A DNA stretch of 59,138 nucleotides, the filler included, from Streblomastix strix (taxonomy: Eukaryota): the NCBI GenBank assembly GCA_008636045.1. It is 3 parts of 3 records of this genome, joined end to end, with 100 filler letters (N's around TTAATTAATTAA, not from the genome) between each part and the next. Parts side by side here need not be neighbours in the genome. Positions count along the whole stretch, not along the records: positions 1 to 19,655 come from SNRW01000497.1; 2 more parts are not named here. One strand, given 5' to 3'. Made by a program: the position numbers and the translations under genes. Shown one piece after another: positions 1 through 35,310 of this stretch; within the stretch, counting starts at the first letter, position 1, and every line of letters starts with the position of its first letter. The notes beneath the pieces are model-generated. The model had not been told where the DNA came from. It made no database searches and saw only the letters and a list, made by a program, of their open reading frames with translations.

Positions 1-320
1 GGTGGCATTTGCTGTAGAATTGACTAGCTAAACTTGAGAAATTTTCTCAATTTGGCTCTTCTTCTAGGTGATGCTTGACATGAAATGATTGAAGTTATAA
101 CAAGTCTAAAATATAGTGAGAATAAATGGTAAATAACAAAAATAATTTTGTTTGAAGCAAACAATAACATAATCGTTAATTAAATATATTTAAATATGAT
201 AATAAATCAATAAAAATATGTGCACTGATAGAAATACAGCTATGATTAAAATTTTAAAGCCAAATTTGGGTTGCAACAAGAATTGCGCAAATGTAAGATA
301 ATAATTTGGGGAGATGGTAA

Positions 321-917
321 ATTGGTGTTGGCCGAATATATATATAATTCATATGCCATTAGATAGAGCACGTGACATACATCACTGTTTACTATTATAA
401 TATCGAAACCTAATGGGATGGTTGTTGAGGAACGGTGGGATGAAGTTTGAAATTTTAGGTCTTTTTGCCTTTAATTTTTTTTTATTTTTTTTTCATATTT
501 TTAGATTATATTATTATAACTCAGCATAATATTGCTTATATTGTATTTAACATTAATAAGTAGGGTTAGTGTCAACGTCGAATGAACTTTGCGTGCCTTT
601 TCAAATGACGGGTTAGGGTTTAAAAATAATGAGCTTTATGTGCCTTATCTAAAGGCGGGTTAGGGTCAAATAATAATGAGCTTTGCGTGCTTTCTCAAAT
701 AACGGGTTAGAGTCTAAAAAACAACTAAATTTAAATCAATATATATAAAAAAATAAAAAAAATTTATAGGCAAAAAGACCTAAAATTTCAAACTTCATCA
801 CACCGTTCCTCGACAACCATCCCATTAGTTTTCGATATTATAATAGTAAACAGTGATATATGTCACGTGCTCTATCTAATGGCATATGAATTATATATAT
901 ATTCGGCCACCACCAAT
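321..917. mobile_element. Non-autonomous fold-back (MITE-like) element with ~170-bp inverted arms
   Basis: 321-~495 (attggtgttggccgaatatatatataattcatatgccattagatagagcacgtgac...) is the near-perfect reverse complement of ~745-917 (...gtcacgtgctctatctaatggcatatgaattatatatatattcggccaccaccaat). No ORF and no clear TSD. Confidence 0.75.
563..720 (+). repeat. 47-bp tandem repeat (~3.4 copies) containing GGGTTAG
   Basis: GGGTTAG at 563, 610, 657, 704 and AATGA(A/G)CTTT at 581, 628, 675, giving an exact 47-nt period. Confidence 0.85.
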
Positions 918-923
918 ATGCTA

Positions 924-2553
924 CAGTCATTCCGCGTTCCCGTAAATTTGTTAATTTAGCAAAAATTTTAATAAAAAAGAATTCTTCAAAACTAAAAGAA
1001 CAGTAATATAATATATATGTAAATTATATTGTAAATTATGAATTAAAATTCGAAATGCGAAATGGAATAAAAAATAGATCAGTCATCAAGTAGCTCACAG
1101 TTTAATACGCCAAAATCAGTTTCGCGTCTTTTTCTTGTTATTTTCGAGCCTACGTTAGTTGCTAATTTACCATTGCGTCTTTTATGTTCTATAATCGGAG
1201 AAAATGCATTTTTATTGACGTGAGCCGTAAATTACTCTCTGTCTCTTCGAATCTCCAGCCCTGTTTTTCTAAATGAATTCTCTATCGTTACTTCGGTGGT
1301 GCGCATTTAATATGCAGATGCAGATAGTTTCACTATGTCTTCGATTGTGTCATGATACTGATTTCCTCTTAGTTATTGAAAATGATGCTTGTAGGATGCG
1401 AAAACTCCGATATCTAGAACTTAAATGTAATGTGTTGCGTTTGGCGGTGGTGTAATCAAAGCAATATTAAGTTATGCAAGTAATTCACGAATTGCAACTG
1501 TTGTATGTGATGGACATCCATCTGATAGAATATAGCTTCTCTGTCCAGGAGTTTCGAAGTCTTCTCGAATTTTGGTGAAATATGGTATTGCACAACTGTT
1601 TTAAAACTCGATAAACAGTTCGGCTGTCATAGTTGACTTGTTTGATTCGACCAAATAGCAATTTCTTCCATGCTCGAGGCCTAACTATCGAAATTTTTCC
1701 TTAACTAATAGTTTTCGAATCACATAGAATGGAATAAAATGTTCCAACGCCATCGTAATTGCCGCGAGCAAACTAAAACGAGGTTCTCCCCTATATACTA
1801 GTATATGTGCTGGTGCTGTTCCTTAAGATTTCGGTATGATAATTATTTGATCTTTTGTGTCTGAATATGCTTGATAACCGCTCTCATCCAAATGAAGAAT
1901 AAAATATACGTTCACTCCCTCAAAACGTTATTCTAGTATTGTTGAGTAGTCATTCATATCTTATTCTTTCACTTTTATTCGTTTAAATTCTCTTTTCGTA
2001 GCTGTTTATTATTGTAGCTCATCTGGATGGTGGGAAAGGAGAGTTTTGTGATACGAATGACCGACAGTGTGGCCAACTACTTTCTAAGCCTCTTCTCCTA
2101 ACTTTACAGGAGATATTAATTCGCCGGATTGACTTCTTTCCGATAATGCTTAGATGACTCGAGATTTTTAATCAGACGACAGTGAACAGTTCGATTTTGC
2201 TTCCACTTTTTTGTACCCACTTTTTTGACGTGCACGCAATATAGCAGCAGGTTGACTTTAGCAGATTCTTGCAAGAATAACTCCAGGCAACACAGGTAAC
2301 ATCTTCACTTTTTCAAACGCAACTATCTGTCTGATAAACTTGTCTTTGCTTTTAAATTCCATTTTTGCGAGTTTTTCCTCAAAGCTGTTATAGTCGAAAG
2401 TTGGAATATGCGGTTCAAAGTTCGAAAGGATGCGACTGAAATCAAAATTTGGTTTACCTTTCTATTTAGGCATTTTTTGTTTGAATAAAAATTCAAATTT
2501 TTTCAGTCCCTTTTTTGTTAAATTAACAAATTTACGGGAACGCGGAATGACTG
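924..2553 (-). mobile_element. Tc1/mariner-pogo superfamily DNA transposon (1630 bp)
   Basis: TIRs cagtcattccgcgttcccgtaaatttgttaattta at 924 and its reverse complement ending at 2553. TA TSD at 922-923 and 2554-2555. Internal transposase ORF. Confidence 0.95.
1079..2473 (-). CDS. pogo/Fot-like DD35D transposase (464 aa, table 6)
   Basis: Uninterrupted ATG(2473) to TGA(1079) frame with TAR=Gln. Motifs LHLDESG, ILSDGCPSH and PPNATHYIQVLDIG, with 35 residues between the second and third Asp. Confidence 0.92.
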
Positions 2554-2912
2554 TATTTTTCCAATAATTTATAAATTAAATAACATAAAAATTGAGTTAT
2601 GATATAGTTATATGAAATTTTAACAAAAGTTGATTATGCAATATTTGATTGGGCGAAAAAAATTAATTTTTGACAAAATTCAATTTGATTATTTAAATGT
2701 ATGTAAAAATTTTATATATTAATATTAAAACGTATTTAATTTATTAATAATCAGATCAATTAGTCAACAATAAAATTATTAACTTCGTTTTTGCAAACGT
2801 TTGTAAAGCATAAAATTTCGTTATTTTTTCTTTATTTATATATATTTAGTTTAATAAAATAATAATCAATTATTTTTTATTAAATTTTAGGAATAACGTA
2901 AGCTAAGCCATA

Positions 2913-3808
2913 ATGGGAACAAAATCGCATTTCAAACCATATCTTCTCTCAGATGGCAAACTAATTAATTTCAAGTATAATGTTGCAAGAAAATTATGTA
3001 TGGATTACAGCATATTTTCAAGAGAAAAAGAAGTCTCTACAGATTTTTGGAAATTAGCTTCATTACAATCTCCAGTAATTTGGAAGATAAACGCTTGTTT
3101 ATGATCAAGTCAAAAAAATAATAAAATAAAATATTAGAGAATGAACCAAGAAAAGAAAGAAATTGAAATAAATGTGCAGATATTAATATAAGATTAAAAG
3201 GATTTATTTTATTATAATTTGTTTCTCAAATAAATATATTTGATTCAACTGAAATTGTTGAAGATGATTTTGAAACTATTACACAAGAGAATCAGAATGA
3301 TAACCAAAATTTATTTGACTAATCCGTATAAAAACTATTTTCTTCTCTATTATATTCATAAATCAAAATAATTTCAACTTCATTTCATTAATTTCAAGTC
3401 GTCTCTGATTCTAAGCATCGATTTCAAACACTGAGTACTGATATTTTACAACTACCTTAAAAATCTAAATTATCATATAATTTTTATTAAGATGAAATTT
3501 AGATTAATAAAGAGGATAAATAACAGCAATATTTGAAGATCTAATAAAAAGTTTCTATATAAATATAAAAAATTATAAAAACTGAAAATTTTTAAGAATT
3601 TAAATTCAATTCAAACACATCTACTTAACATTAGCGCAATTCAAATATACCAAATTTTGATACTGTTAGTAATTCATATTCATAATTGCAATTTTAATCA
3701 AATTCTCGTTTTAATGACTAAATTGCTATTTAAGAGAGTGTTTAGTAAGATTAATTTTAAATAATTGAAGAAAAGAAGACATATTTTTTTAATTATTATT
3801 TATTGCTT
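2913..3808 (+). pseudogene. Host-like Gln/Asn/Ser-rich coding fragment ending near the virus-like insertion
   Basis: Long TAR=Gln frame at ~3240-3800 (FDSTEIVEDDFETITQENQND...). No recognisable domain and exon structure unresolved. Confidence 0.3.
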
Positions 3809-4078
3809 AGTAGTTATGTGAAAAAGGAGAATGCCTCACATTGAAAAATAAAATAAAATAATGAAAATAAAATAATGAAAATAAAATAATAATAATAAAA
3901 TAATAATAATAAAAAATAATAATAAATAATTTAAAAGAAAATAAACACTTGAATAAGATTAATGATGTATATTTATAACAAAATTTGATTGAATGCGGAT
4001 ATTGAAATAGATTAATGATGCACGTTATTGAATGATATTCTTGAAATGTATGGCACTCTCCTTTTTCACATAATTACT
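3809..4078. repeat. Terminal fold-back segment bounded by 27-bp inverted repeats
   Basis: agtagttatgtgaaaaaggagaatgcc (3809-3835) versus ggcactctcctttttcacataattact (4052-4078): reverse complements with 2 mismatches. Confidence 0.85.
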
Positions 4079-4209
4079 GACAGCGCTGAAAGACGAGATT
4101 AATGATATGGGTTGATTGATTTCGTTATGTCGGTCTTCTGACCTCAGCCTTGCAGCTGAAAACCTAAAATTTATTGGTGAAATCGTTAGTGAAATTATGA
4201 ATATTTGAT

Positions 4210-4585
4210 GTGGATTGAGTGGATTGATTCATAAAACATTAATGAAACCTGAGAAATTGACACGAGTAAATGGCTTTGTTAATGAATGACTTTTGGATGG
4301 ACTGGGTGGAATGGGTGGATTTAGTCAAAAACTTTTATCAAAAACTGCTGCCAGCCGGCAATTCAGCCAGATTGCTAATTGATTTTATTAGTGAATTTTG
4401 AACATAATATATATTTGTTTGATATAGATTGGGAGGATTGAGTCATAAATCATCGATGAAATCTTTGAAATTGGCACGAGAAAATGGCTTTGTTAATGAA
4501 TAGCTTTTGACTGGACCGTGTAGATTGGGTGGATTGAGTCAAAACCTTTCATCGAAAATTGCTGCCAGCCTACCATTCTGCCAGA
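4210..4585 (+). repeat. Dispersed intergenic repeat, two tandem copies (~213-bp period)
   Basis: Core aaattg(a/g)cacgag.aaatggctttgttaatgaat..cttttg..tggac...gggtggatt.agtcaaaa...aaa.tgctgccagcc...attc.gccaga at ~4255-4371 and ~4468-4585. Confidence 0.9.
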
Positions 4586-4615
4586 TATGAAAACATTAAC
4601 AAAAATAAATATTAT

Positions 4616-7073
4616 TCAAAGGTTGATTTAATCACTAACATCTTCGTTGATGGATTGGTCTTCGTCTCTTAGTCTTTCATAAAATTTTATTAAATCTTCG
4701 TTCAATTTATATATTCATGTTTTTTTTCTAATATCATTTTTTATATTCTTTGACATTTATTTTTTATTTATAATTAGAATGATTTTTCTTTAACATCGAA
4801 TGGTTTAAATTGTAGTGCAATAGTGCAAGGCACGCCTTCCTTAAGCGTTTGATAATTTTATAAGATTAAATCATCAAGTTATGAACGTGATGCTCTAATT
4901 ATATCCTTTTTCGTCCCTGTAAATGGAATGATTTTTTGATTCCAATTACTTAAATCCTGGTAATAAAATAAGTAAATAAATTATTATAAAATTCAGTAAT
5001 GAAACCTTTAGATAAAGAAGTGAAGTATTCAATGTCGTCCTTATTAACTGCCTTACATCTGCATAAAATTTAACGCTTATCATTAGCTTCAATTTTGATA
5101 GGGAAATCGTTGTTGGTTACCATTATCAAATTCATAACTACTTCCGCTGTTCTGCGAGGCTGATTTTTTTCATTTATTCTTATTTGATTATCTGTTATAA
5201 TTGACTTCAACGCATCCATGTTCGAATATCTTGCTTCTCCAAAGTTTTTAAGTTCATTAGCTATTCAAAGAATTATATTTTCAACGACAGAATTAAACAT
5301 ACTCGTAAATTCATCAATATCTGTTATATTTTTAATTGAATAACCAGCCAATAATTCATATAAAACATCTGTGAATCTGTTTTTTCCTATATCTTAACTG
5401 CATTATAGTATCAATGCCACCTCTGATTTCACATATGCATTATATATAACAAATTCAATCCAAATAAGTATATAATTATATAAATTTTCATCCTAAACTG
5501 CTATTGTTTCATATATTAAATTTAAATAATCATTAATTTGGTCTTCATCAACTGTAGGCAATTATTAATATTTATAGCCTTAAAATTTACTGAATTTTCT
5601 ATGTCTTAACTAATAAATCTAATTCCTTTCATCATATATAAAGAATTTAATTATTTGCAAATTTATTTCAATGATATATTTTTTTAATTTTCTTTCCATA
5701 GAATAATCATCTGTAATTATTCAAATATTGCTGTTTTATTCATGTATTAAATTTTATATTTTTCATTAATTATATCGTATAATTTCACTATAAATACCAA
5801 GCCACCATCACATGGAGAATATTGTAATATTCTTGTTAAATCTTAAACTACTTATTTAATCTTTTTATATACTTTATTTGTTATATATATCTAATAAATA
5901 AAAATTATCTTTTAAATCAATTAATTACTAATTTATTTATATTTATTCATCTTATCATTATTTTGCAAGTTAAAGCTTTATAACATCGATGTAATGCTAT
6001 AGATTATGATATTTAAAAATTTTATATAGAACCCATTGATTAGCTTTTGAATAGAATCTTGACCTTTTGAGCTCCCAATTTTGAATCGCATTATCGGTTA
6101 AATTATTAAATGCCTTAACCTTGATATAAGCATCATCAACGTATTATTTAATTTCCTCCTCTTGCAATCCTTCAAACTAATGCAAGACCATTTAATCCTG
6201 TAAATAGATATATTAATTTATTTCTAATTCGACTTTCTTAGCATCATTATGTATCTATAAATGTTAGATTCCATTAACTAACAAATCAGCAAATTTTTTA
6301 TTCATTTTTCTTAATTTTCCATCATTATTTTTACTTGGCTTCTCTTCTTCAAATTATGCTCTTAAATCTATACCGTAAACATCTAAGACATCATTTAATG
6401 TAGCTTTGTTCTTCTTTTCAAACGTATTAGTTAAATCTTCATATTTTAATGATTTTCATTAATAATTTTCTTAAGTTCTATAAGTTGATTTCGGAAGAGT
6501 ATTAAGACTTTAATTTTCATCGATATGTACAAAAATATCAATATCAAAATTTTCTATTTTTATGATTTTGATTTATGAATTAATTTTTAGTGGATAGCCA
6601 TCTCTATCTAAATATATATGTAATCCTCCATGTGCTGTCTTAACGAGTCCAACATTAGAAGGTAAATTTTCAATAATTTAATATCTTGTTTCTGTTATTT
6701 TTTCATCTGAAAAATTTTTCTTGATATCAAAATCCATTATGCATAACTAATTATTACTTTTACCTAAATCAACAGCTGATCCTGTTTTTGAAACTTTTTC
6801 CCATCCGTATGTTTCGTATAATTATATAATGAAGTGATTGCTTCTTTGATACGTTCGTCAATAGTTAAATTATTATATTTCGAATTATTTTTTGATATGT
6901 ATGTTTGAAGAGCAACTAATAAACTTTTATTTATCTCTTTTTTATTTTTTTTATCGGTCAAATTATCTGTTATTTCAGTAGGATAGTAATATATTTATTA
7001 TTTGGCTGGATCAGCTGACAGATGGATTCTAATTGCCGGCACACCCGACAGATTCAAATTCTATTGTTGCCAT
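4616..7073 (-). pseudogene. Primase-helicase: AEP prim-pol domain fused to a D5-like superfamily-3 helicase, disrupted
   Basis: TGSAVDLGKSNNQLCIMDFDIK and VKTAHGGLHIY (prim-pol motifs, ~6610-6790). Degenerate Walker A ALILQCSQDIGKN (~5380-5420), Walker B IANEL and motif C MVTNN. Frameshifts and an internal TGA. Confidence 0.85.
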
Positions 7074-7198
7074 TTCCTACAGATAAAAAAAGTCAGATTT
7101 AAATAAAACAAACTCGATTAATTTTAAAATAAGTTTAATTATTTATTTTTTAAATTTTTTATTTGGCAGAAATTTATTTTTATTTATTTTTTTCACTT

Positions 7199-7288
7199 CT
7201 AGCAGAATGGCAGGCTGGCAGCAGTTTTTGATAGAAGTTTCTGACTCAATCCACCCAATCCACTCGGTCCAGTCAAATGTCATTCATA
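7199..7288 (-). repeat. Dispersed intergenic repeat, inverted copy
   Basis: gcagaatggcaggctggcagcagtttttgatagaagtttctgactcaatccacccaatccactcggtccagtcaaa is the reverse complement of the core at 4505-4585. Confidence 0.9.
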
Positions 7289-7687
7289 ATTCACATCAAT
7301 TATTCACACAAAAATCTTATATTTTTATGTTGCCAAATTCATGTTCATCAACAGTTCAAGATAACAATTTAAACTTCATTTTTGACTTCTACATATCAAC
7401 ATTGTATATAAACATCTTTCTCAAGGCTAATCAGAAACATTTATTTTTTAGCTTATTTTTTTACTTATACTTTTTACATTCATTACATATAGGAATAAAA
7501 AAAATAAAAAATAAAAAAATAACTTTATTTCCTTGAAATTTTAAAATTATTTAATAATCAACTATGTACACAATTCATATACGCTGATTCCGAAAATGAC
7601 CTTTTTAGCTCAATCTGAAACTGTTGATTATGCTCAATTAATGGCTTTATTTTACGCAAATAATTAATTATTTTTAACATGATTAAA

Positions 7688-8218
7688 ATGAAGAATCCAA
7701 CAATTCCAGAAGTGGAACCATAATTTGAAAAAGAAATCGACCCATTTCAGCAACAGGAAAAAAAAACGCCCACGTTGTCAGCTAGGCGCAGAAGTTCAAT
7801 TTTCGAAGAAACTTTAACTCCAGACCCTTCAGTGTGTCGTTTGCTTTTGGATATCATTAGTGAAGACGAGCATACGGTTAAAGAATCAGTACATTTCGTA
7901 CTATCTAAAAATTAATTGATTCCGGTTGTTGCTTACACTTTTGACGTCCTTGAAAGTTAAATTTAATTGAGTATAGAAGAAGAAGGATATTGTGGTAGAT
8001 TCTGCAATGACTCAACTTAAACATTAAATGAGATATTTATTGGGAACGTAAATATATTAAAGTTAGACGTCGAAAAAGTAAATTTATTAAAGGATAGTTA
8101 TAAAATATGTATATAAAAAATAAGAAAAATAACAAGCATTTTAGATTTAGGTTAGATTACAAGTAAAATTATTAGTGCAGTATCAAAAGGATTTTTGATT
8201 ATGTTAAATAAAATTTGA
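7688..8218 (+). CDS. Hypothetical viral protein (176 aa)
   Basis: Open ATG to TGA frame in table 6 (MKNPTIPEVEPQFEKEIDPF...). No recognised motif. Confidence 0.45.
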
Positions 8219-8250
8219 TGCCATTAATAAATTATTTTTATTTTTATAAA

Positions 8251-10910
8251 ATGGACGGAGATTTAAATATTCTTGATGTTTATTTAAATCATGATTGTGT
8301 ACTTTATGGTTCTGGTAGATATAACACTATTGACTTAATTACTGAGTTTAATATATTGAAAATTTAATAAATCTAATTAATGAAGCACCTGAACCTTATA
8401 ATCGTGAAGAAATTGATGAAATGTTAGATAAAAAATTAAACATTTCTGATTAAATCGATGCTTACACCAAATAAGAAGATGATGCTCTGCTATTAATGAA
8501 GACTTATAAATCAGAGCTCATTGATGCATATTCGAAGTCTGTAGCCGATGCCTTACTCGATGAAAAATTAAACATTTCTGATTAAATCGATGCATACACT
8601 AAATAAAAGGATGATGCTTTGCTATTGTTGAAGGCTGATAAATCAGAGCTAATTGATGCATATTCGAAGACAGAATCCGATGCCCTTCTCGACGATAAAT
8701 AAAATATATCTGATTAAATTGATGCATACAATAAATAAAAGGATGATGCTCTGTTGCTGTTGAAGGCTAATAAAACAGAACTGGATAACTATGTCGAATT
8801 AAATTCTACTCAAAATATAGTAGGTCAAAAATAATTCGGAATAATTGGTGTTTCCAGCATATCGAAATAGAATCAAAATAACGGTTCTATTCTTCTTGCT
8901 GGCGGTTACGATATGTTAGTAAGTTCATTAGTCTCACAGCCATAATTATAAGAAGTACGAGATATTGCTTCAGGTAAATCAAAAGGATATGTCTTTGCTA
9001 CTAAGGATGAGATGAATACTCGGATGGAAGATTAGGAAAATGTTGCAAAATTATCTATTGGTGATAATTTATATATAGTTGATAAATAAGTCATGGATTA
9101 TTGGAGGGATGGTATTATTCTTCGAGCATTAGAAACAGAATTGCCAGATATGAGCAATTTTATGACCATTCTTGGAGCTGCTACAGGAGGAGGCAATGCA
9201 AAAACAGATTTATCATTCAGTGAAAATACATTAATGCCTGCGAAAAATAGTTCATTTATAACGACTAATAATGATGAAATTATTATAGGTTAAAAGACAT
9301 TTAACATAACTTTCCACTCAGTTGGAATAATAGTTCAAAATTACGATAACAATTCTGTTGTTCGTGCTGATGGCGGTGTTAAGGCAATGCAGGACATAAC
9401 TGCAAGTGTTGATTTTTCAAATTATTACAATAAATCATAAACATATTCAAAAACTGAAACTGATTAAAAATTAAGTCTACAATTGAACATTTCTGATTAA
9501 ATCGATGCATATACTAGAGGAGAAGACGATGCTCTGCTGTTGTTGAAGGTTGATAAGATATAACTAATTGATGCACATACAAAAGGTGAAACCGGTAATA
9601 TACTCTATAATAAAGCTAATTCAGGAGTTTCATACTCCGAATAGGAAGACGATGCTCTGCTGTTGTTGAAGGCTGATAAAACATAACTGATTGATACATG
9701 TTCAAAAATAGAAGCAAATAATCTATTAAATAATAATGTTAACTTATGAGTTTCATATACAAAAGGAGAAGATGATGCTGTGCTATTGTTGAAGGTTGAT
9801 ATAACATAATTGATTGAAACATATACAAAAGGAGAAACCAATAATCTTTTAAATAATAATGCCGATTCTGGAGTAAAATACACAAAAAGAGATGATGATG
9901 CTCTGTTATTGTTGAAAGCAAATCAATCAACTACTTATATAAAAATATAAACTGATTATCTTATTTCACAAATTGAAGTTGGTGATGTTGATTTAAATGG
10001 CTATATGACCTTAGGTATTGCATAGATAATAAATGCAAATAAGACGTTTAATAATGCTCGTAGGTTCGTAAGTTCTATCGATGGAATGGCAACAATCACA
10101 GGCGCATCGTTTGTTAAATCAGGTGCAGATGATAGTATTGTATTACCTGGAGCTGGTAGTTCTAAGATAATATCTGAATTTGTAGATACTCCAACTGATT
10201 TATCAAACTATTACACAAAAACATAAACAAATTCGAAAACAGAAACGTATAATAAGTTTGTAGGATTGGAACGTTCAATTTAATAAACATTAATTGGAAG
10301 ATTAAAATATGTTAGTCCATTTGGTGAGGCATACTATGAAACATAAGACCCTGTAGCTAATATATATTTGACTTAGTCAGAAGTTGATGCAAAACTAACG
10401 AATTATGCTATTACAGTTAACAGTTAAGAAATTATTGGAACAAAAACAATCAATATTAATGTTAATGCTGCTGTATTTATTAAAACAGGTAAAGACGATA
10501 CATCGGTTTTATTGGCTGGTGGGGAAGAAGCTTTGATACCATCATTTGCAAAATAAAAATTGGTTGAAATTAATTGTATGAATAATGTAGTTAATCCAAC
10601 TTCAATAATGTCACTAAAAAGTTGTATATATCGATTATTAGTCAATTTTTACGCTTATATATACATGAGTAGTGGAGCAGGAGCATCTGGTGCATCAGTT
10701 ACAGTATGCACACTTGAAAATGCTTGATTTCCAAAATTTTTATTTTATACAAATGATATAGTTTTTGCTGGCTCTTCACCACATGTTGCTAATTTCAGAT
10801 TCGGAACTGATGGAAAGGTTACGATAGTTATTATAACACTAACTGGAATAGCTTATTTGGCTGGTGCCGCTTCGGCATACATTAACGTTACATATCCTGA
10901 AGTAAATTGA
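8251..10910 (+). pseudogene. Fibre-like protein with phage tail-fibre-type repeats, disrupted
   Basis: Many ~19-20 aa repeats such as IDAYTKQEDDALLLLKADKSEL and YSKTESDALLDDK. Repeated (F)VK.G.DD..VLLAGG motifs and a beta-rich C-terminal domain. One frameshift near 8370 and TGAs at 9747 and ~10726. Confidence 0.7.
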
Positions 10911-11005
10911 TGACAATTATAAAATAATAATTAATAAAAACTAACTCAAAAATATTTATTTGTTTGAAATTGTTTGGATTAATTAATTATTTTTATTGAA
11001 TATAA

Positions 11006-12622
11006 ATGTCAAACTTTTATATCGATGAAAGATTGTTAGACGCTGCTGGTTTATCTAACTTCCAAGAATTATTCGCATATATCAAAGAACATTATTCTAA
11101 GCAGATTGGTGAGCTATCGCTACCTGTACCTATTGGTGGCCAAACTCTGCAATAGCAAGTGAAAAATAATGATGATATTATCTATGGTTCTGGAGATTCA
11201 AATGAAGAGTTCGAGCCACCAGTGCCGAACGTTATAATGAAATTGGATTTGAGTTCATAATTAGAGCGATAAAGTTTCTTAGCATCCAGTGGTTCAAATT
11301 CATAGTTAATCGTTTATGGTGATAGAATCACATTGACAGCATCATATGCAACAACAGGACTATTTCCATGTGGCGATTAGTTGGGGGGTTAGTTGAGCGG
11401 TTATTTATTCAAAAGTTCTCCACATGAAGCAAGACCAAAATTGGGTGATTAAGTGATTGCATTAGTTGGAAAAGATTCTCCTAATATATATAATATATTC
11501 TGTTATATCGACTAAAACGTATCTTATATTATAAACTCTAGGTAGCTGCCATAAAATATTGCTCTGATGCTTAAAATTACATATTATAAATAATATAAAT
11601 CATCAAAGAAAATAAATTATAATGCGAATAATGATGGAAAAATAGACATTATGAACTCATGAAATGCTAATGGATAAGGTTAATTTGAAGCATAATCGTA
11701 TGTCTATGAAGCAGTTAAAAAATAAACAGATTTAATCGAGGCAGGGGTTTAAGAGCTAAATAGAACTAATTATTTGTACAGTGAAATAAAACTAATGGAT
11801 GAATTAGCGATATTTAAGGCAGATAGAGCAGCATATTTTATTAAAGATGGGCCATTCATCACACATAGCTTTGGAGCAAAATTGGCACAGTTAGGCATCA
11901 ATTCTGAAATGCAATAAACTATATACAAATTATTCTCGACAATCGGTAAAAAAGTACTACCACCTAATATTAAATATATGCCTATTCATGTAGAATAATA
12001 AGAATTTTCCGCTATGCGTCTGTTCAAAGATATATATGATAAATCTTCTGCGGTATAGGTGGCCGTTAGTGGATAATTAAATATGTTTGATTGTGAATTT
12101 CAAGGAACATATATCCTTGAGAACTATGTGAACGGCATAAACACCAATGAATCTGCATTTGAAGACGTATAATCACACATTTACGAAGTAATAATAAAAC
12201 ATGAAATATAATTAGATTCATCACTACAACCACAATATATGATAACAAATATGTTCAATTAACTTGCAATTAATGATTTTTTCCCTTCATCAGTATAAAA
12301 TACGTTCTATATCGTTGATGATGGCACTTGCAGAGCATGCGTACTTAATCTATATTCTAAATCAAAAGGGTTGTAAGAGAGAACATAAGAAGTAAGTCGT
12401 ATTTCTGATGCGGAAGTCCCTGATGATGGTAAAAGTTTGTGCTTGCTTGCAGCAATATATAGAACATAGGGCGGAAGATAGAATAATTTTTCAGTGAAGT
12501 ATTTTATTGTAAATGCTTAATTTAAAATGCTATACTTTTAATTATCAGAATAGTAAGAGTCAACACCAATCTATTCAACTGATGTCTTTAAATATTGTGC
12601 TAGTGGAATGTATTATTTGTGA
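11006..12622 (+). pseudogene. Hypothetical viral structural protein (one frame, internal TGA near 11660; may be two genes)
   Basis: Single frame from ATG 11006 to TGA 12622 in table 6. NNDDIIYGSG resembles NHDCVLYGSG at the fibre N-terminus. Confidence 0.5.
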
Positions 12623-12657
12623 AAAACAGCGCCAGCAACTCCAATGAAAACCATTAC

Positions 12658-12772
12658 TTTGACACGAGAAAATGCAATGTAAAGTGAATAGCTTTTGATG
12701 GGACAGAGTGTATTGGGTGGATTGAGTCAGAAACTTCGATAGAAAACTGCTGCCTGCTTGCCATTCTACCAA
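12658..12772 (+). repeat. Dispersed intergenic repeat copy
   Basis: ttgacacgagaaaatgc...gaatagcttttgatgggac...attgggtggattgagtcagaaacttcgatagaaaactgctgcctgcttgccattctacca matches 4468-4585. Confidence 0.9.
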
Positions 12773-12854
12773 ATAGTCGAAACATTAAAAAATAAAATCA
12801 TTTATTCGAATCCAAAATAATATACATAAAATTTTATTTTATTATAAATAATTA

Positions 12855-13115
12855 ATAGCAGTCAGGTTATTCTCAAAAATAAAACAATTAGTTTAAAAAG
12901 TAGGGAAAGGTCTTTAATTGGCTGATGATAACATTTATAGACTGTTCATAGAACCATTTGCTAAATCAATTCTTGGAGCACTGGGTCCTGTCGGCTAAAC
13001 AATAGACAAAGGTTTAGATGTTGCTAGCTCATTTCTTGATTATGGTTATGGTGCGGATAAAAATGGTTAATTTAGATAAGATTTTGATACATTAAGTAAC
13101 GACGAATATTTATGA
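12855..13115 (+). pseudogene. Small amphipathic-helix protein, start codon apparently lost
   Basis: AVRLFSKIKQLVQKVGKGLQLAD...FAKSILGALGPVGQTIDKGLDVASSFLDYG. The frame begins ATA GCA where ATG would be expected. Confidence 0.45.
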
Positions 13116-13246
13116 TAAAAATTACCCATTGATATACAGATTCGAAGAATATAATTATAGATCCATTGAAAAATATAAGAATTATGTTCAATTCATTAAC
13201 GGTTATGAATATGTATTTTTTCATGTTTCGACTATCTGACGGATCG

Positions 13247-13318
13247 ACTGGTATTTTTCATAGAAATCATTTTACTCAATCCACCCAATCCACTCGGTCC
13301 AGTCAAAAGCCATTCACT
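13247..13318 (-). repeat. Dispersed intergenic repeat, inverted partial copy
   Basis: actcaatccacccaatccactcggtccagtcaaa is identical to the stretch starting at 7244. Confidence 0.85.
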
Positions 13319-13443
13319 ATCCGAATCAATTTATCGATCCAAAATAACGCTTTTTCATCAATGGTTTTTCAATTATCAACGTTTTTATGTTTCATTAACG
13401 AAGTTATATTAATAGTTTTTTGTTTTTTTATTAAATATAAAAG

Positions 13444-15152
13444 ATGAATAGATTTTTAATGAAAGCCACACATTTACAACAAGCAGGGACCATCGAAGAA
13501 ATATTGTTACGTAATACTATCATTCCATTCATTAATGACGCAGAATATAATTATTCTATCAAGGAAATCAAACCAGAATCATAGCTGCCAGCGTTGTTTG
13601 ATAAGGAGATAATCATTAGTTTATCAGACACAGGCCACGAAATCACATAGATATAAAATTCAATCTTGTCGATAGTGCTAACTGCCAATATTTAACTTTG
13701 ATAAATTTGGTAAAATTGACGAATCATACAAAGATGGTTTGGTTCTATTTTTAGGTCTCAAATCAGGTTCAAATCATATTAGAAAATACACAATCTATCA
13801 CAGAGATAAAACCATTGATGGAAGTCTATAGAATGACGCAACAACTGAGTCAATCATTTATAACACAGTCAAGCCATAAAGTGAAAAAAATATTAGAAAA
13901 CTTATTCATTCCTTTTATGAGAATATTCATAAATTTGATACGTCAGCGTGTGGAACATATATAAGTATGCGAGAAATTGAAGAATTAATAGGAAAACAAA
14001 CAGCCATTCCATATTCAATTCCAATACGCTTCAGAGTTAGCATTCCACTTGATGACCTCTTGATATTCTCTGCATTTACTGTTTATCCTAAATGCTTATT
14101 TGGTGATTTAAAAAAAATACAAAATAAATCCTCATGTATTCGTTTTCTGTTAAGTGAATCCAACAATTTCAATAGTTAAATATTATTCAATGAATAAAGA
14201 TGAATTATTGGGCAGTGGCCAGTAGAATTTAATTGATATTGATTTGATGTTCTGAAATTGGAGTTTGACATTTTAAAACACCAAATAATTTACGTAATTG
14301 GGATGCACTGCTCACTTGATAACAGGACTACATGCGGAACCATTAACTGAGTCAGAATTGAAGAACTTAGTATGTGGCATCAAACCTGTTACCATATGCA
14401 TAAAAAATTATGTCATAACAGAGGTGACCGCTAACATGGCGGGTTATAAATCTACTGATGCATGCCTTAATCGAGTCCGATAATTCTACAGCTAACGTCC
14501 ATTTGTTGTTCCAGCCCAACGTGTGGAAGTATGGTCCCTTCTGACATCTGCCACATTAACGGGAATACGAACATCTTAAAATATTCCTCTGTCTCACGTA
14601 ACCGACTTCTGTCTTCCATTCCCTAAAGATGCAAGTGCTACGACTTGCTTTGAAAATCCTTGCTATCAGAACATGCAAATAACCACTTGCTGACGTAATT
14701 TCCCAGATATGCCTATGAATACTCTTGACCAATAATTTTTCTAATTATAACTCAATGCATCAAATCTTGACCTGTTATTCGAAGCCACTGATTAGTATGA
14801 AGATGCTTTGACAACACCAAAAAATACAGCAACCCGAAGACTGAACCTTCATATAGATTTAACAAGCTTTTTGATAACTCTTTAATGTGAAAGGAACAGC
14901 AACGGAGCACTAACATTTGACGGACTAGACACTCAGAACTAAAACACATCTGCCGAACTCAGAGGAAAGCCAATATATCAAGGAGCAACAGATTCATATT
15001 ATAATGTAGATACCAGCGGAAAGAGGCCACCACCTCCTATTTTATGCACAGTTCATGATACATTTTGGTTATTCTCACCCGCAGCGGGCGGAAGCTGCAT
15101 ATATGATACAAACCATTCATTTGATGAAGTTATTGGACCACTAACAGGATGA
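13444..15152 (+). pseudogene. Putative major capsid protein of a Polinton-like virus (~565 aa), disrupted
   Basis: Beta-strand-rich ORF of MCP size. FRVSIPLDDLLIFSAF..YP..LFGDL and C-terminal FLITLQCERNSNGALTFDGLDT resemble double-jelly-roll PLV/Polinton MCP motifs. Two frameshifts and internal TGAs. Assignment is by pattern and context, not by HMM. Confidence 0.7.
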
Positions 15153-15288
15153 GAAAATTAATTCGTTAAATTAGAACATATTTTATTTTTTTATTTATAT
15201 ATATAATTAACCCCTAAACATTAATATGGTTAATTAAATAGGCAATTGGTTATATTTCCATTAATTATTTTTATTTATTTTATAATAA

Positions 15289-15795
15289 ATGGCTTCAAAT
15301 ATGACTTCATCATAAAACTTAAATAATTTCACTTTAACATAAAATGACGGAGTTGAAATCGGAGAAAACGCCTAAATGAACGGAGTGGGTCTTATATTAC
15401 CATATGCATTTGTAAATTCAGATAATTAAAGAAAAATGATATTCTATTAATACCACTATTCAAACTAAGGCTCTGATGCAGACATAAGCGTTCATAGTTC
15501 AATGGTTCAAGAAGAATAATATTTCGATTAATTTGTAGGCTATTGTAAGGAATAACGTGTTTATAAGCCTTTCATCCAATATTCGAACAACAGATATTTA
15601 TATGTATGGTTCCGTTAAAATTAAGAACTATTGGACATAAATTAAAATTAATTAAAATTTGTTCTTGAGTTGATGCTTGAATATTGTAGTGAAAAAGTTG
15701 CTGGTTCAAAAATGAGCTAGCCCATCGATGTGCATATTTTTGTTCAAATCATTGGGCCACGCTACCTCTAGAAAAATGGAGATAAATTATTTTGA
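15289..15795 (+). CDS. Putative minor capsid (penton-like) protein
   Basis: Directly follows the MCP. ISVHSSMVQ...FVGY...YKPFIQY...LYVWFRQ...LLDI...FVLELML resembles the C-terminal strands of single-jelly-roll pentons. Confidence 0.5.
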
Positions 15796-15897
15796 GTCTG
15801 GCTGATATCCGCCGCACCATTTAATGTTCAAACAAATAAGACTTCCAAAATTAATCGTTTATTTTTTATTTAAATCTAACTTTTTATTTGCTATAAA

Positions 15898-16197
15898 ATG
15901 GAAGCAGAAACTACAAACATATAATAAATTATATCAGACAATGAAACTTTCACTATTGGCTTTTATATGATGTTCGATATAATGATAAGAGATAAATATG
16001 GTTATATTAATGCAATAAAATTAGTCCCTATAATTAATGAAAGAGAATACACGAAATAGAAATCAAAAAAAATATTAAAATTAGTTATGTGTAGAGAATA
16101 TAAGAAATTTTTATGCACCTAAGCTCTGATTCAAAATTAGTAGTATTTTTTTTATCGAAACAAATCTAATTGTTTGAATAAAAAATATTTGCTTTGA
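15898..16197 (+). pseudogene. KilA-N domain protein, truncated
   Basis: FDIMIRDKYGYINAIKL matches the KilA-N signature (xxGYINATKL). The C-terminal half is not recognisable. Confidence 0.7.
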
Positions 16198-16412
16198 GTT
16201 TCAATATACATACTAGTAATATGCATGCACATATCTATTATACAAATATAAATATGAAATAATATGGTTAGCGTTACAAAAATAATAACATAGAATTAAT
16301 CAAACAAATATCAAAAAATCATTAAAAATTTCGTGTCAAAATTTTGTGTATTTTTAATTTTGTTGTACAGAAACTAGCTATCTATTATATTTACATTTAT
16401 ATTGTAGTTATA

Positions 16413-16916
16413 TCATATATGCTGTACGTAATAAATATTAAATTGATCAAATTAATTACTATCTAGCAAAGATATTAATAAAATTTATAAAATTTTTTTT
16501 ATTTTTTTTTAAATAATATCGCTGCCTTCGGCGGCTCTATCTATGATAGCGCTAATTTAAAGTAAATCCTGTACGTTAGTTATGATAGTTTTCTGAGAAC
16601 GTCGAATCAAAAGTAGTTACAAATCATTAGCAGATGTTCGGAATTTCTATCGCTGTATTTTATATTTTTTTTAGGCACGGGATCGTTACTCTGCGGCAAT
16701 GCGTTCGGCTTCTTCTTGTGAGCTATATTTTTTAGGTCTACCTCTTTATTCTATTTTCTCCTCATTTAATTATGTCTATTATATAGGATTAACTGCTTAA
16801 TCGATTAATGGAGCATGAAGAACTTCATAGATTGGACTGGAATATGTTTCATTCAATTATGGAACTGGTTTCTTCGATTATCTTTTACGTACTTGTTTTG
16901 TTTCACTTGATTGCAT
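16413..16916 (-). CDS. Small AT-hook DNA-binding protein
   Basis: QRGRPKKYSSQEEAERIAAEQRSRAQKKY: a GRP AT-hook followed by a charged helix. The 3' end is uncertain. Confidence 0.6.
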
Positions 16917-16935
16917 TTCCTTTTAAGAAAAATTC

Positions 16936-18485
16936 TCAATTACTTACAGAAAATATCGGTTAATTCGACGATGCATGAGCCAAAAATAACTATCGTCGAA
17001 TTAAGTTTAATTCGACGATTTAGGTTATTTTCTAATAATTTTTAAAAATAATTTGTTAAATTTTCGTATTTTATTAAATTTTTTTAAAAATTTTAAAAAT
17101 TATTTCGTCGAATTAACCGATAAGTCGAATTAAGCGATAGTCGAATTAACCGATATTTACTGTATATTAAAATAACTTTTATAGCTAGCTGGTAACGAAT
17201 TGATATCATCACTAATGAATTTACAATAATATATAGGTAACTCAATAACATTAATTTTATCATATGAATTCAATAATTTACACACAACATTACCGTTCTT
17301 ATAAGTAATGAATGTTGCTAACTCATTGAATTAACGTCTTTATTTCTAAAATCTTATAGGTAACCTAGAGAAATCAAAGTGAATCATTAATATATTTCCA
17401 CTCTTGAAATTTAAAAAATTCTATTGTTATTGTCTTTACATCACCTATTCCAATTATGATTATTTTTATCGTATGAATTTGCCTTCTAATTCTTTATTAT
17501 ATTACACTTATTTTGGAGTAAACCTATTCATGAATGCGAGATGTGGTGTTTTATTGTAAATCTCCACCATTTATTGCATCTAGCTTGGTGTTGCTAATCC
17601 TATTAATTCTTATCCAAACCCATTTCTGATTGTGCGAATGACGCTGTCTACTACTCTATTATGCTATGTATAAGGAGAACCTGTAAAATACAATGAAATC
17701 TTATTATCTTCATAAAATTATCTAATAATATTAGCTTTAAATCCAGTTTCACCATCACCTCTAATATTGTTAACATATACTTAATTAATGAACTTCTTTA
17801 ATGCAGCTAATATATATGTAGCATTCTTCTCATCTACAATTATTGGAATCACAACTAAATATTTTGTATTAATGTTGATCGCAAATAAATAATGCTATCT
17901 CCTTCGAGTAACTGGATTGACTCCGAAAACAAGATCAATCTCCCAAGATCCTAATTTTGGAGAGAAATATTGGCGTTAGAGTTTGTTTAATGGCTTCACT
18001 TTAGCGTCATTGATTTATGTTAAAATCGTTATCTTTACTTAAGTAATTTTTTCATATTATTTGACTTTTGATTTGAAAGGAATTACAGATAGTAATGCTA
18101 GAGGTTAATCAATTCTCATAATTTGTTCATTAGCATGGGGCCTGTTTGTATCTTGACTTCTTATAGATCTAACTCATCTTAATGGTGGATTATACTTTTC
18201 TGCTTCTGTTTAATATATCTCATACCATTCAAGTAATTTTTTTCCTCCAATCTATATTTCATCTGCATGATTAATTAAAACATTTTATTCTTCTTTACTA
18301 GGAGTTATTCTCATATTTGATACAAACTGTGCAAACTTCACTTCTTCATTATTTGTGTTCGATAATCGTTTGAGCTACTGTTCCATATTATGTGCATCAT
18401 ATTCTATTTATTCATCTGTTTATGCAAATCTTGCCAACAACAATTAGTAAATTTAATCTAAATTATCTTATGGGTCTCAGTTCAT
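16936..18485 (-). pseudogene. Retroviral-type (rve) integrase of the Polinton class, disrupted
   Basis: GSWEIDLVF, YLFAININTKYL, NIRGDGETGF, HNRVVDSVIRTIR and YNKTPH. Internal TGAs and frameshifts. The native stop at 16936-38 is separated from the gene by the MITE. Confidence 0.88.
16947..17162. mobile_element. 216-bp Tc1/pogo-type MITE
   Basis: TIRs cagaaaatatcggttaattcgac and gtcgaattaaccgatatttactg (1 mismatch). TA on both sides (16945-46, 17163-64). Internal repeats of gtcgaattaa in both orientations. Confidence 0.9.
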
Positions 18486-18511
18486 TTTATATTCAAAAAT
18501 AATTATAGACA

Positions 18512-19078
18512 TCAGTGACAGATCTTCGATTCGCAAGCGTATTTAATAGCGGCTTCTCAAATAATCTTAAAGATAGCGTGCCAATCAGTATGTAGTTATT
18601 CAAGCGCATCAATGGCTATGGTTATATTTGCGGATAATGATTCAAAGATAGGCATTTTCATTAGCTAAAAATAAATCATTCACTCTAACGTTTTAACTAA
18701 TTCTTCTAACTAATTTATATAATTATCTAGTATTTCTCTATATTCTTGACAAGCGTTATGAAGCTTATTTTCGACACTGCATTCAGAATTCATCCAATGA
18801 ATCTCATCTTATATTCTATTTTTAAGCGACATTCGCATGTCATAAACCGTATCTTTATGTGCCTCATCGAAACCATCTAGATCTGGTTTATTTTTATTAG
18901 TTTTACAAGGTAATCCGCCTGCAATTCTTGCATCTAATTTTGCATCACATCTGTCCATACTATCTCTTATTTTTTATAAATCCATCGATAACTTATATAT
19001 AGCTCTTGATTGTTACATTTATGATATACATTATTTTAGTGTATTAACGACTTCGTCTTGTTTCTCTTATTTGCTCAT
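18512..19078 (-). pseudogene. Hypothetical helical viral protein, frameshifted
   Basis: ATG at 19078 (MSKQEKQDEVVNTLKQ...) with a frameshift near 18890. The 3' end is uncertain. Confidence 0.3.
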
Positions 19079-19103
19079 TTCTGATAAAGTAAAAATAATA
19101 TAT

Positions 19104-19655
19104 TCAAAAGTCAATATCGTATAATTTTTTGAATTTATTTAGATAGATTGAACATAATTTATTATCAATATCTATCATTTGTACGAATAATGCACCTGAT
19201 TTCTTATTCGCATTAACGTGTAACTATCTGTATTATCTATAATTGTAAAAAAAGAATTCATCAGTTTCAGGATCATAAGAGTAGAACTCGAATCTATGAT
19301 GACGATATTCATTCACTACAATAGCTTCATCTGATAAAGAGTCTACGTAAGTATATTCCTCATTCATGTATGATGATTTATTTTTAGCATTATTTCTATG
19401 CGAAATCCATCGTAAATTATCGAAATGATAATCGCTTCTATCTCGATTTACATGATCAACTTCGTTCAGATTATCGGGATTATCAATGAAGTTTTATGCT
19501 ATAAGTCTATGAAGTCTATATTTTTTTCTATTAAGGTTCACGCATTAATATCCAGAATTATTTTCTATAAATATATTTGGTTAAAATTAATTATCAATTC
19601 GTCTAATTTAATATGGATATGTGTCATTGATCTCGAATTCATTATTAGCCACTAA
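19104..19655 (-). pseudogene. HNH (HNH_3 / I-HmuI-like) endonuclease, 5' end cut by the gap
   Basis: YRLHRLIAQNFIDNPDNLNEVDHVNRDRSDYHFDNLRWISHRNN. Same family as the genes at 37269-38696. Confidence 0.85.
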
Positions 19656-19755
19656 NNNNNNNNNNNNNNNNNNNNNNNNNNNNNNNNNNNNNNNNNNNNT
19701 TAATTAATTAANNNNNNNNNNNNNNNNNNNNNNNNNNNNNNNNNNNNNNNNNNNN
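19656..19755. other. Artificial contig spacer
   Basis: 44 N + TTAATTAATTAA + 44 N, identical to 39406-39505. Confidence 0.97.
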
Positions 19756-29753: not shown

Positions 29754-30932
29754 TTTTAATAATTAGGCAAATTAAACTTTCTAAATTATAAAATTTCAAA
29801 TTAAAAAAAATTACATTTTTGTGGCGAAAATAAGTTATAAAACTGTTTTATCTTTGCTAGCCAAACGTATTTCTTCGTTACGTGGATATTTTGTCATTAA
29901 AATATCACTATAAACCTGAATATGAAGGACAAATGAATGTAAATGCAAATAAATATGATTTCAAATGAAATTAAAGCTAGTATTTATTTGCTACTCGAGC
30001 TGTGTTGAATTTTTAATTGAGAAATATCGGGCAATTTCTGTCACAATTTTTCTTTTAAAATGTGACTATAAGTAAAAATAGGATGTAATTTATGAATAAA
30101 ATGAAAAATTAATATTAAAAATTGATTTTAAATATTCGTACAATATAATAATTGCTGTTTTTTTGCAAAATTTGTGACCCTGACATGAGCAGTTCTAAAT
30201 ATTCAACGAATAGTAAAAATTTAAATAAAATGTCTTAATACGTTATATGAAATATAATCTACGAAATAATAATGCAGATGCTCTACAAAATCCAGAATTG
30301 AAAGTATTTTCTAATTTATTCACAAATTGGAAGACTAACATTTATTTCGTAAAAAAATATAGTATTGCAAGAGTAATTGTAAAAATATCAGCTTTAACTT
30401 AAATTTATTTGTTTTTTATAACTGATTTAAAACTCTTTTTCACAATAATTTCAACGGTTACAAGATGTCTGGTTATTAAGGCCCAAATCCAAGATAGATA
30501 ATGCCTGTAAAACCAACAAAATGCGAAGATGATGAAACTGATATCAAGAAGTACTTTACAAGAGTTGGACCCATTATTGGATTTTTATATTTACTGTAAC
30601 GGTGCTTAAATTGTGGATTCATTTCCAGCAGCGATTTTTTTAAGCCGATTTTTGGTAACATTAGAAACCCAATCATTATATTCTGGGTTTTATATAACCC
30701 AATCATATCATAATAAATCTCCATTGTTTTTTGGAATACAGCAGGACCTTGAAATGGGTCGGATCCGACAAAAATCTACTAACAACTCGGTTTGTTCGCT
30801 CCTCAGATGAACGTACTAGATCCCCCCGCAATAGTAGTCGAGTGGGAGAACCAACAACTTGATTAGCACGCTGGTTATCCGCTACCAGTGCCAGAAAATT
30901 AACCTGCGAAGAGCGACGCCGTCCTGCCATTT

Positions 30933-31853
30933 ATGAAGAACCTCCTCAACTAAACAGCACGTACACCAGAGGAACAGCAGCACTAACAACAAATCGCCTC
31001 AGCGCAGCTTCTTATCGAGCAATACTACGACGAGAAAGTGGCCGATTATGACCCGACTGGAAAACACCCAACCAAGTACGAATTAGAAGCCTTGGAGGAC
31101 AGAATCTAGGCAACGCTAGGTCTTGAAATCAACAAGAAGGGAGCTGTCGAAAAAGCAGGCGATCTGGACTTGGAATTTGAAGCTGAAGTTTGTAAACTCG
31201 CAGTTGATTGTCAAAGAGCTTCCGCAGCGGCAATTGCAAGTCTAGCTACGAATGACGCAGAATCTGCAACAGAATGGATACTTACATCTCATCACTTGGC
31301 TCGTATCATAGCTGGTAAGTCACAGCAACGTCGAGAGCAAGCCTTGGCGCCTCCAATGTTCAGGGGCCTGCTGGGCCCAGATGTTAGCGCATCAGACGTA
31401 TTCGGGAAGAAGTCGAAAGAAAAGCTAAAAGAATAAGCTAAAACAACCAAATTAATTGAGCATCCAAAGGAGATCAGCGCCACAAATCTAAAACCTGTTG
31501 TGCAACCGGCGCAGGTAAATTAATCAACTCCTACCACGTCTTCTGCATAATAGTAGGCTCAACCACTGATATAAATTCTGCCGTTACCTTAGCCATTCAC
31601 CTTTTAATCATCGAATCTACCGAATCAACAGCAATAGCAAGGAAGTTTCAATAGTTTTCGTAGTTGGGGCCGTGGCAGAGGAGGCCCATATAAACGTGAC
31701 CGTTCTGGTAATATATACCCATATAATAACCCCAACTAATCAAGTCAATCCCAAAATCATCAGAACTAACTGCTGTCACAACTCGCTACATTCATGTAAA
31801 ACTAGGCGTCACCACAGACCCAGCAACCTGCATAATAACCGAAATAGGAATGA
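30933..31853 (+). CDS. DIRS Gag-like ORF1 (306 aa; frame is open further upstream)
   Basis: Open frame from ATG 30933 to TGA 31853, with a helical core and a Gln-rich/RGRGG tail. Lies upstream of pol. Confidence 0.8.
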
Positions 31854-31980
31854 ATCGAAGCTTCTTAGGACCCTCAGATTAACTAAGAAGAACAGGAAGT
31901 TGAAGATTCTGAGGGCTAGAGTGAGAAGGCATAATGACTAACCTATCATCAATCAGAAAGAAGTGCAGAAGGAGGGAATA

Positions 31981-34875: not shown

Positions 34876-35310
34876 TGAAACCTATATAAAAATCTATATA
34901 ATTACATAAATAATATATATTCATATATGTTAAGGAATTAAATAACATATATTAACATATCTATATATATATAAACGTATTTGCTGTAATTGTCTCGAAA
35001 ACGGCCTGGATATGGCACGTTCGTCCCCCCTCAGCAAATATTTATTAATTATACAATGGGCCATTTCATTTATAACAATTCACATGCCCAATTTATTTGT
35101 ATTTCCAAACATATATAGCCACTTCACATATCTATTTCATAAGCCCAATTTAAATTAATTAATTAATTAATTTGAAGGTGAACCACTTCATATATACATA
35201 TCACAAGCTCAAATATTAATAAGCAGTCGAAGATATAATATACACATATATATAAATAAATGGAAATGCCTAATTATAATTATAATTATATGATGAATAT
35301 ATTCAAATAA

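Follow-up and report, generated by a model that had tools for sequence, protein, structure and literature searches.

A stretch of 59,138 nucleotides from the assembly of Streblomastix strix (GCA_008636045.1), hereafter the window, consists of three separate contig pieces of about 19.6 kb each, divided by N-linkers at 19656-19755 and 39406-39505, each with a six-frame-stop linker. From position 3809 to the contig end at 19655, the first piece holds about 12 virus-type genes that become readable under translation table 6, in which TAA and TAG (TAR) specify Gln. These 15.8 kb, the span examined here, are very probably a decayed genomic copy of a Polinton-like virus (PLV) with one end missing, which belongs to the Metamonada group of major capsid proteins (MCPs) and is likely integrated in an oxymonad reading TAA/TAG as Gln. 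The host is likely S. strix or a close relative, a termite-gut oxymonad protist. The contig end cuts an HNH gene, and the right end of the element lies outside the window.

Standard gene calling passes over the element. Under table 1, three frames of at least 100 aa occur within 3809-19655, none of which coincides with a gene frame found, and the longest stop-free run under table 11 is 86 codons in the nine gene frames measured; a preliminary description, which held that the standard open reading frame (ORF) track misses the element and counted about 11 genes under TAR=Gln, was right on both points. Over the whole window, table 1 yields 15 frames of this size and table 6 yields 287 (most of them spurious), a set to which the other pieces contribute frames of 1575 and 2075 aa. 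Spurious frames are numerous because table 6 drops two stops from AT-rich DNA, and each gene was therefore tested separately. Even under table 6, which brings out the array, most genes of the element are broken by frameshifts and TGA stops. Comparisons draw on 120 paralogue gene models labelled S. strix and on relatives, with 18 metagenome loci examined; proteins carry P-numbers and loci L-numbers. The features are listed below in window coordinates.

3809..4078, no strand: likely left arm, with an AGTAGT-led motif, an A-rich tract and an inverted motif copy (arms 3809-3842 and 4045-4078, 88% complementary)
4170..4620, minus: two copies of the intergenic repeat, with the highest summed-depth bins
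4690..6920 (outer coordinates approximate), minus: primase-polymerase/superfamily 3 (SF3)-type helicase fusion, DUF5906, broken by TGA and frame changes
7163..7315, plus: intergenic repeat copy, its core 432 nt before the ATG at 7679
7679..8218, plus: open ORF of 179 aa, no Pfam or PHROGs match
8250..10895 (start approximate), plus: repeat-rich, likely fibre-like structural gene with 132- and 123-nt repeats and two in-frame TGA
11006..12622, plus: second structural-looking gene, possibly receptor-binding, one TGA, linked to the MCP in paralogue models
12644..12798, minus: intergenic repeat copy, matched by repeat and core
12855..13115, plus: amphipathic protein of small size that lacks its start codon, joined to the MCP in paralogue models
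13208..13354, plus: intergenic repeat copy, its core 167 nt before the MCP ATG
13444..15152, plus: MCP, from homologues, collinear paralogues and linkage, with the fold taken from paralogue P0011
15289..15795 (conserved core ends near 15696), plus: small single jelly-roll protein, likely minor capsid or penton, from homologues and a model
15898..16197, plus: possible KilA-N remnant, unconfirmed, GYINAxKL motif only
16413..16920 (start approximate), minus: basic protein with one AT-hook-like RGRP motif
17150..18485 (3' end approximate), minus: rve-type integrase (Pfam rve), two in-frame TGA in the N-terminal part
18680..19075, minus: open ORF of 131 aa, no significant family match
19104..19655, minus: HNH endonuclease (HNH_3, PHROGs), 5' part cut by the contig end

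Capsid genes and their linkage

The MCP gene belongs to a large family. A query with 14694-15149 finds 138 protein homologues, the best 120 of which are all labelled Streblomastix strix (53-94% identity), and a profile search reaches 536 representatives at E 0.001 or better. The window copy is 67-89% identical to full-length S. strix-labelled paralogues, whose tblastn pieces are collinear on 13444-15152 with no gaps of intron size between them, confirming exactly the coordinates given earlier and, for this gene, the absence of introns. The copy is damaged by two frameshifts and two in-frame TGA; full-length MCPs of 560-580 aa are kept in many paralogues across several subfamilies. The model of paralogue P0011, built on an 86-sequence alignment, has a predicted local distance difference test (pLDDT) score of 90.4. 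Its best Foldseek match is the Sputnik MCP (3j26_A, E 3e-13, 11% identity), followed by iridovirus, PBCV-1 and mavirus chains, and VIA returns a PBCV-1 capsid chain at Z 20.4 (rmsd 4.3, 343 aligned), an iridovirus chain at Z 19.7 and Sputnik at Z 15.8. These matches of a predicted structure establish the double jelly roll for the MCP family, and the jelly-roll fold proposed for this gene thus withstands the check.

In locus L009, the MCP frame is open for 390 codons up to the contig end, and the DNA is 87% identical to the window copy. The likeness of L009 (627-1850) to the window ends at a 25-nt core upstream of the MCP, and the L009 copy may therefore be truncated at this motif; a frame upstream of it may encode a GH92 glycosidase. 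In L013 (1640-2491), an ORF that looks by eye like a protein kinase adjoins the MCP gene, which suggests an integrated copy beside a host gene.

The small ORF at 15289-15795 finds no homologues at near lengths as a single-sequence query, and neither a PDB sequence match nor a Pfam match. Homologues of 130-180 aa are nevertheless present near the MCP in five of the 18 metagenome loci (L005, L007, L008, L011 and L012), with a tblastn match at E 1e-4 for L005 and a profile match at E 7e-4, and an alignment search adds 20 more proteins. The model of the window ORF is all-beta with a pLDDT of 64. Among 48,161 chains compared in VIA, the top four are viral capsid chains, from EhV-201 (Z 8.2, rmsd 3.0, 100 aligned), PBCV-1 (Z 7.4), the mavirus penton (Z 7.0, rmsd 3.2, 109 aligned) and PBCV-1 again (Z 6.8), most of which differ by no more than about 1 Z from non-viral jelly rolls; the best BFVD row is an uncharacterised 149-aa protein of salmon gill poxvirus (E 2.7e-4). 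The model supports a single jelly roll with moderate confidence, so that this second fold proposal is likewise not refuted, and the protein would likely serve as a penton. The label penton-like given to it earlier is sound as regards conservation and fold, and less certain than stated as regards the role.

L011 and L012 additionally contain a 228-aa ORF whose Atlas rows include a Sputnik V18/19 cluster, with the family on 44% of the members and recognition short of the threshold set by the tool. This ORF, which shows no profile similarity to the small ORF, has no match in the element, and the small protein of the window may therefore be a second, smaller minor capsid protein. In these two standard-code loci (L011 1899-4359 and L012 1345-3062), the MCP is followed by a single block composed of a 208-aa conserved gene, the small jelly-roll gene and the larger minor-capsid-like gene, so that two minor capsid candidates lie next to each other.

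Genes of the array accompany the MCP in other copies. Among the 120 paralogue models, 22 join the MCP to another array gene, namely the amphipathic ORF (9/120), the second structural gene (8/120), the fibre gene (4), the small jelly roll (2, one inverted) and the helicase (1); the integrase and the AT-hook gene are linked to the MCP in none of the 120. Array neighbours also recur in the standard-code loci L005-L008 and L010-L012, such as L006, where an HNH gene and the amphipathic ORF adjoin the MCP, and L010, where the amphipathic ORF does. Co-linkage in other genomic copies, on which the preliminary description had made its interpretation depend, is accordingly found. None of seven scans of viral_contigs, which work with short patterns matched exactly and extend no further than close relatives, found a relative.

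The remaining structural candidates are less certain. The product of 8250-10895 is 53% identical to paralogue model P0108, which continues into an MCP; no family matches it, and its designation as a fibre, inferred from the repeats and weak Atlas rows, is unconfirmed. For the second structural gene, the Atlas structure rows of paralogue P0084, a low-confidence model, all have TM of 0.44 or less by query. The amphipathic ORF resembles an ORF near the MCP in L006 and L010 (23% identity), with a hidden Markov model match at only E 0.55. Its product would be a membrane-active capsid protein, which we take to resemble adenovirus protein VI. The 179-aa ORF is perhaps related to the gene adjoining the MCP in L011/L012, given a weak hhalign match (27% over 78 columns, E 0.053). 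Between the small jelly roll and the AT-hook gene, 15898-16197 contains GYINAxKL, presumably a hallmark of KilA-N. Paralogue model P0116 has KilA-N directly after an MCP piece; here, no Pfam match appears in any of the three plus-strand frames, and the KilA-N proposed earlier remains unconfirmed.

Genetic code and capsid phylogeny

When 29 distant relatives are aligned with the element, Gln is the most frequent residue opposite TAA (122/375 cells) and TAG (48/100), as it is opposite CAA (60/158). The same count in S. strix-labelled proteins (Gln in 1290/1819 cells at TAR) is circular because these were presumably translated with table 6. The MCP frame is free of TAR in all ten relative loci measured. 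Among codons read as Gln, TAR makes up 158/208 in nine element frames vs 350/464 in three long host-like ORFs, and 14/19 in the open MCP of L009. Judged from sequence, these counts support the reading of TAA and TAG as Gln in the element genes, and the code assumed from the outset stands up against standard-code relatives.

A FastTree phylogeny of 94 MCPs (27 S. strix-labelled and 67 other relatives; midpoint root, fragments excluded) gathers all 27 S. strix-labelled MCPs in one branch with support 100, comprising several subfamilies and lying among the 67 relatives. Next to this branch stand P0128 and P0126, which come from loci without TAR (L001 and L005). The simplest history suggested by these sequences would be one entry into the host lineage, followed by recoding and then expansion. 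A standard-code ancestor would have entered the host lineage, after which its Gln codons would have drifted to the TAR-rich usage of the host. Standard-code cells would then truncate every gene, leaving only TAR=Gln hosts open to the family, which would have expanded in them. The match in TAR usage between virus and host, in a clade nested among standard-code relatives, makes a host barrier imposed by the code testable. In practical terms, elements of this kind in recoded protists escape standard gene callers.

Replication genes, likely left end and repeats

The fusion gene at 4690-6920 has a firm helicase part, with Pfam DUF5906 at E 4.7e-16 and PHROGs DNA primase at E 3.4e-6. Its N-terminal piece aligns with ORF904 in the PDB over the DFD and HGGLHIY motifs at E 0.64, which is weak; thus, of the primase-polymerase/helicase described earlier, the helicase is secure and the primase is not. 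Protein-primed DNA polymerase B (pPolB) has no Pfam match in the frames scanned of 3809-19655, the primase-helicase being present instead. At 17150-18485, rve is the top Pfam match (E 0.0034, model positions 6-97 of 102, that is, 92/102), below the curated cut-off, and no PDB sequence matches; the rve integrase named earlier is weakly supported. So is the AT-hook gene, in which the RGRP motif is present and Pfam AT_hook reaches E 0.063, below cut-off. The HNH endonuclease, in contrast, is firm (HNH_3 E 5.2e-6, PHROGs E 6e-17), and a related HNH adjoins the MCP in L006 (E 4e-24). HNH genes also occur as a tandem pair with an 816-nt duplication at 37272-39071 (HNH_3 E 3e-10 and 3e-9), near the end of the second contig; they are related to the L006 HNH and possibly mark the edge of another virus copy.

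The element was said to start with AGTAGT. The hexamer is indeed present at 3809, but it occurs ten times on either strand in 1-19655 and is uninformative alone, so that the weight is carried by a longer motif of 34-54 nt. In sequencing run X1, the base that gives AGTAGT in the inverted copy accounts for 35,202 of 43,445 summed contig depth (47 contigs). Past 4078 the summed depth falls steeply, the values being 70,321, then 3,680 and finally about 220; in four other X1 contigs, 4077/4078 is joined to internal repeats. The pattern at 3809-4078 fits a regular left arm with a putative terminus at 3809. A separate miniature inverted-repeat transposable element in this place is disfavoured, given that no matching target duplication was found and that other contigs join its end to internal repeats. 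The element is multicopy, with 990, 64 and 27 contigs on 3947-4700 (754 nt) in runs X1, X2 and X3, mostly 80-99% alike, although depth is not a copy number.

An intergenic repeat of about 110-140 nt with a 25-nt core is found five times in the element, nowhere else in the window and in 0/100 shuffles. In the paralogous locus L009, an identical core precedes the MCP. Sense genes follow two of the five cores but not the other three. Most likely, these repeats would be cis-regulatory, with a putative role as promoter or origin. A structured RNA is rejected for now, with 0/17 pairs covarying, one Rfam row (E 0.52) below the gathering score and no tRNA.

Identity, alternatives and surroundings

Folds, homologues and gene linkage support the earlier proposal of a capsid-encoding integrating double-stranded DNA virus, as a likely integrating, Polinton-like one. 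The genes that characterize PLVs are represented by a replication gene (pPolB or a helicase fusion, here through DUF5906, with weak primase motifs), an integrase (through the rve match, though below the curated cut-off) and a double jelly-roll MCP (on paralogue P0011). In the intact ancestor, a linear genome with the AGTAGT motif at its ends would have been inserted by the rve integrase. The primase-helicase fusion, replacing the protein-primed polymerase, would have copied it, and MCP, small single jelly roll, fibre and amphipathic peptide would have built and delivered virions.

Several points weigh against this identification. Neither a packaging ATPase nor a protease, both of which the preliminary description had named as genes to be sought in full-length copies, nor a canonical penton of 230 aa was found in the 15.8 kb (Pfam, Walker A scan), which ends inside a gene with the right end missing; the proteases sought in 3809-19655 include the Ulp1-type cysteine protease. 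The MCP fold is predicted on P0011 rather than on the broken window copy, and the small jelly roll, at Z 7-8, is close to nucleoplasmin (6.7) and cupins (6.3), with no Foldseek PDB match at E 0.001 or better. The Walker A motif of the helicase is degenerate, the integrase has, by eye, Asp and not Glu at its third catalytic position, and the primase, integrase and AT-hook matches are all below cut-off. Some TAR codons of the window copy are probably mutations, such as that at 14793, where 108 paralogues have Glu. Finally, the paralogue models, which are chimeric predictions, derive from an assembly in which some joins could be artefacts, and runs X1-X3 represent one sample of one study, possibly the source of the window.

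In view of the missing genes, the family might no longer be viral, having become a transposon that copies itself within the genome, or a satellite supplied with ATPase, protease and penton by other elements, with the capsid module partly kept. The 228-aa minor-capsid-like ORF of L011/L012 that is unmatched in the element, the high copy number and the lack of a relative in viral_contigs would all agree with this; however, the contig end at 19655 cuts a gene, so that the missing genes may lie beyond, many paralogues across subfamilies keep MCPs of full length, and the viral_contigs scans extend to close relatives only. Such a loss of viral character is unlikely. Within the PLV interpretation, a more elaborate version would have a host-locked, stripped-down virus that was recoded once, lost its packaging ATPase, its protease and the canonical penton, has a vertex jelly roll of about 110-130 residues and uses the 25-nt motif as origin or recombination site of the primase-helicase. 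This scenario is distinctly unlikely; if true, the small-jelly-roll family would be a handle for placing Metamonada viruses that are still ungrouped.

An endogenous parasite of virophage type, dependent on a giant virus and with the five-copy motif as a promoter read by the helper, is suggested by Sputnik as the top Foldseek match of the MCP, by mavirus MCP and penton in the match lists, and by the two cores that precede sense genes, conserved upstream motifs having been read as promoters in EMALEs in the available text of PMC8547959. Nevertheless, identity to Sputnik is 11% and its Z of 15.8 compares with 20.4 and 19.7 for PBCV-1 and iridovirus, three of the five cores precede no sense gene, and, as far as the accessible text goes, Bellas et al. 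2023 (PMC10120064) separates the S. strix MCPs, as members of a Metamonada group, from those of virophages, all of which renders this explanation quite improbable. An assembly chimera of unrelated repeats, or frames that are a table 6 artefact in AT-rich DNA, is extremely improbable and already largely refuted, for although most of the 287 table 6 frames are spurious and no contig spans the whole 754-nt test stretch, the folds, homologues, Gln test, recurrent neighbours (22/120 paralogue models, L005-L008 and L010-L012) and contigs joining 4077/4078 to internal repeats all speak against it.

As a PLV of the Metamonada group, the element can be compared with several known systems. It shares with Polintoviricetes a double jelly-roll MCP, a likely rve integrase, a probable single jelly-roll protein and a putative AG-led end motif, such a motif being a hallmark of Polintoviricetes. 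The part of the element in the window differs from them in that no pPolB, ATPase or Ulp1 protease was found and in that its MCP belongs to another group. Tetrahymena thermophila, the host of Tlr1, also reads TAR as Gln. Tlr1 resembles the element in having an rve integrase and capsid genes with no canonical pPolB, whereas it has a pPolB-derived superfamily 1 helicase fusion instead of a primase-SF3-type one, according to the available part of PMC11161782, which also describes AEP-S3H PLVs. In AEP-SF3 PLVs and group 2 Maverick-Polintons, as described in the text at hand, a primase-helicase fusion likewise replaces pPolB alongside jelly-roll capsid genes, but the MCP of the element lies outside their groups; swaps to AEP-SF3 are stated to be common in the accessible part of bioRxiv 10.64898/2026.06.19.733378. 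The same part leaves Metamonada elements ungrouped, with highly divergent capsid genes and too few genomes for placement.

The closest counterparts are the endogenous viral elements (EVEs) of the Metamonada group, whose MCP cluster comprises S. strix and parabasalid members. In its available text, Bellas et al. 2023 (PMC10120064) defined an MCP group with S. strix members and 820 S. strix MCP matches, confirmed the fold of the family and stated that the TAA/TAG=Gln table of the host applies to the EVEs; MCP family, fold and host-code use are thus already in print. MCP family, named host and TAR=Gln code are the same here, both the MCP cluster and the code being shared. Table S3 of that work lists KAA6394011.1, a 562-aa S. 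strix MCP, which is by eye near-identical to P0020, and 3j26_A is the top fold match in both. The text available of PMC10120064 gives no S. strix gene map, replication gene, minor capsid protein or repeat motif, and Streblomastix is unmentioned in that of bioRxiv 10.64898/2026.10.13.758929. No published gene map of an S. strix element was found in the literature searched, which mostly left subscription journals uncovered. What is added here is the gene map, the very small jelly-roll protein, the single clade nested among standard-code relatives and the five-copy intergenic motif. The locus gives the unplaced Metamonada elements a gene map, a replication type and a conserved small jelly-roll family.

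The window also contains other mobile elements. A Pogo-like DNA transposon lies at 922-2555 (DDE_1 E 3.4e-8, frame open under table 6), with 57-nt inverted arms and TA at both ends, beside a 171-nt inverted duplication of 96% identity (321-491 and 747-917). A tRNA-Ser (AGA) gene occupies 53767-53861 on the minus strand. Two retrotransposons, at 30665-35537 and 56187-59137, carry RVT_1 (E 2e-29 and 3e-24) and Phage_integrase, a tyrosine recombinase (E 7e-11 and 9e-5), and are presumably DIRS/Ngaro-like. Perfect inverted arms of 43 nt, 326 nt apart, are found at a retrotransposon end (55859-56270). In the two reverse-transcriptase frames, TAR makes up only 38/91 of the codons read as Gln (0.44 and 0.39), and this lower share than in the virus and host-like ORFs may mean a later arrival of the retrotransposons.

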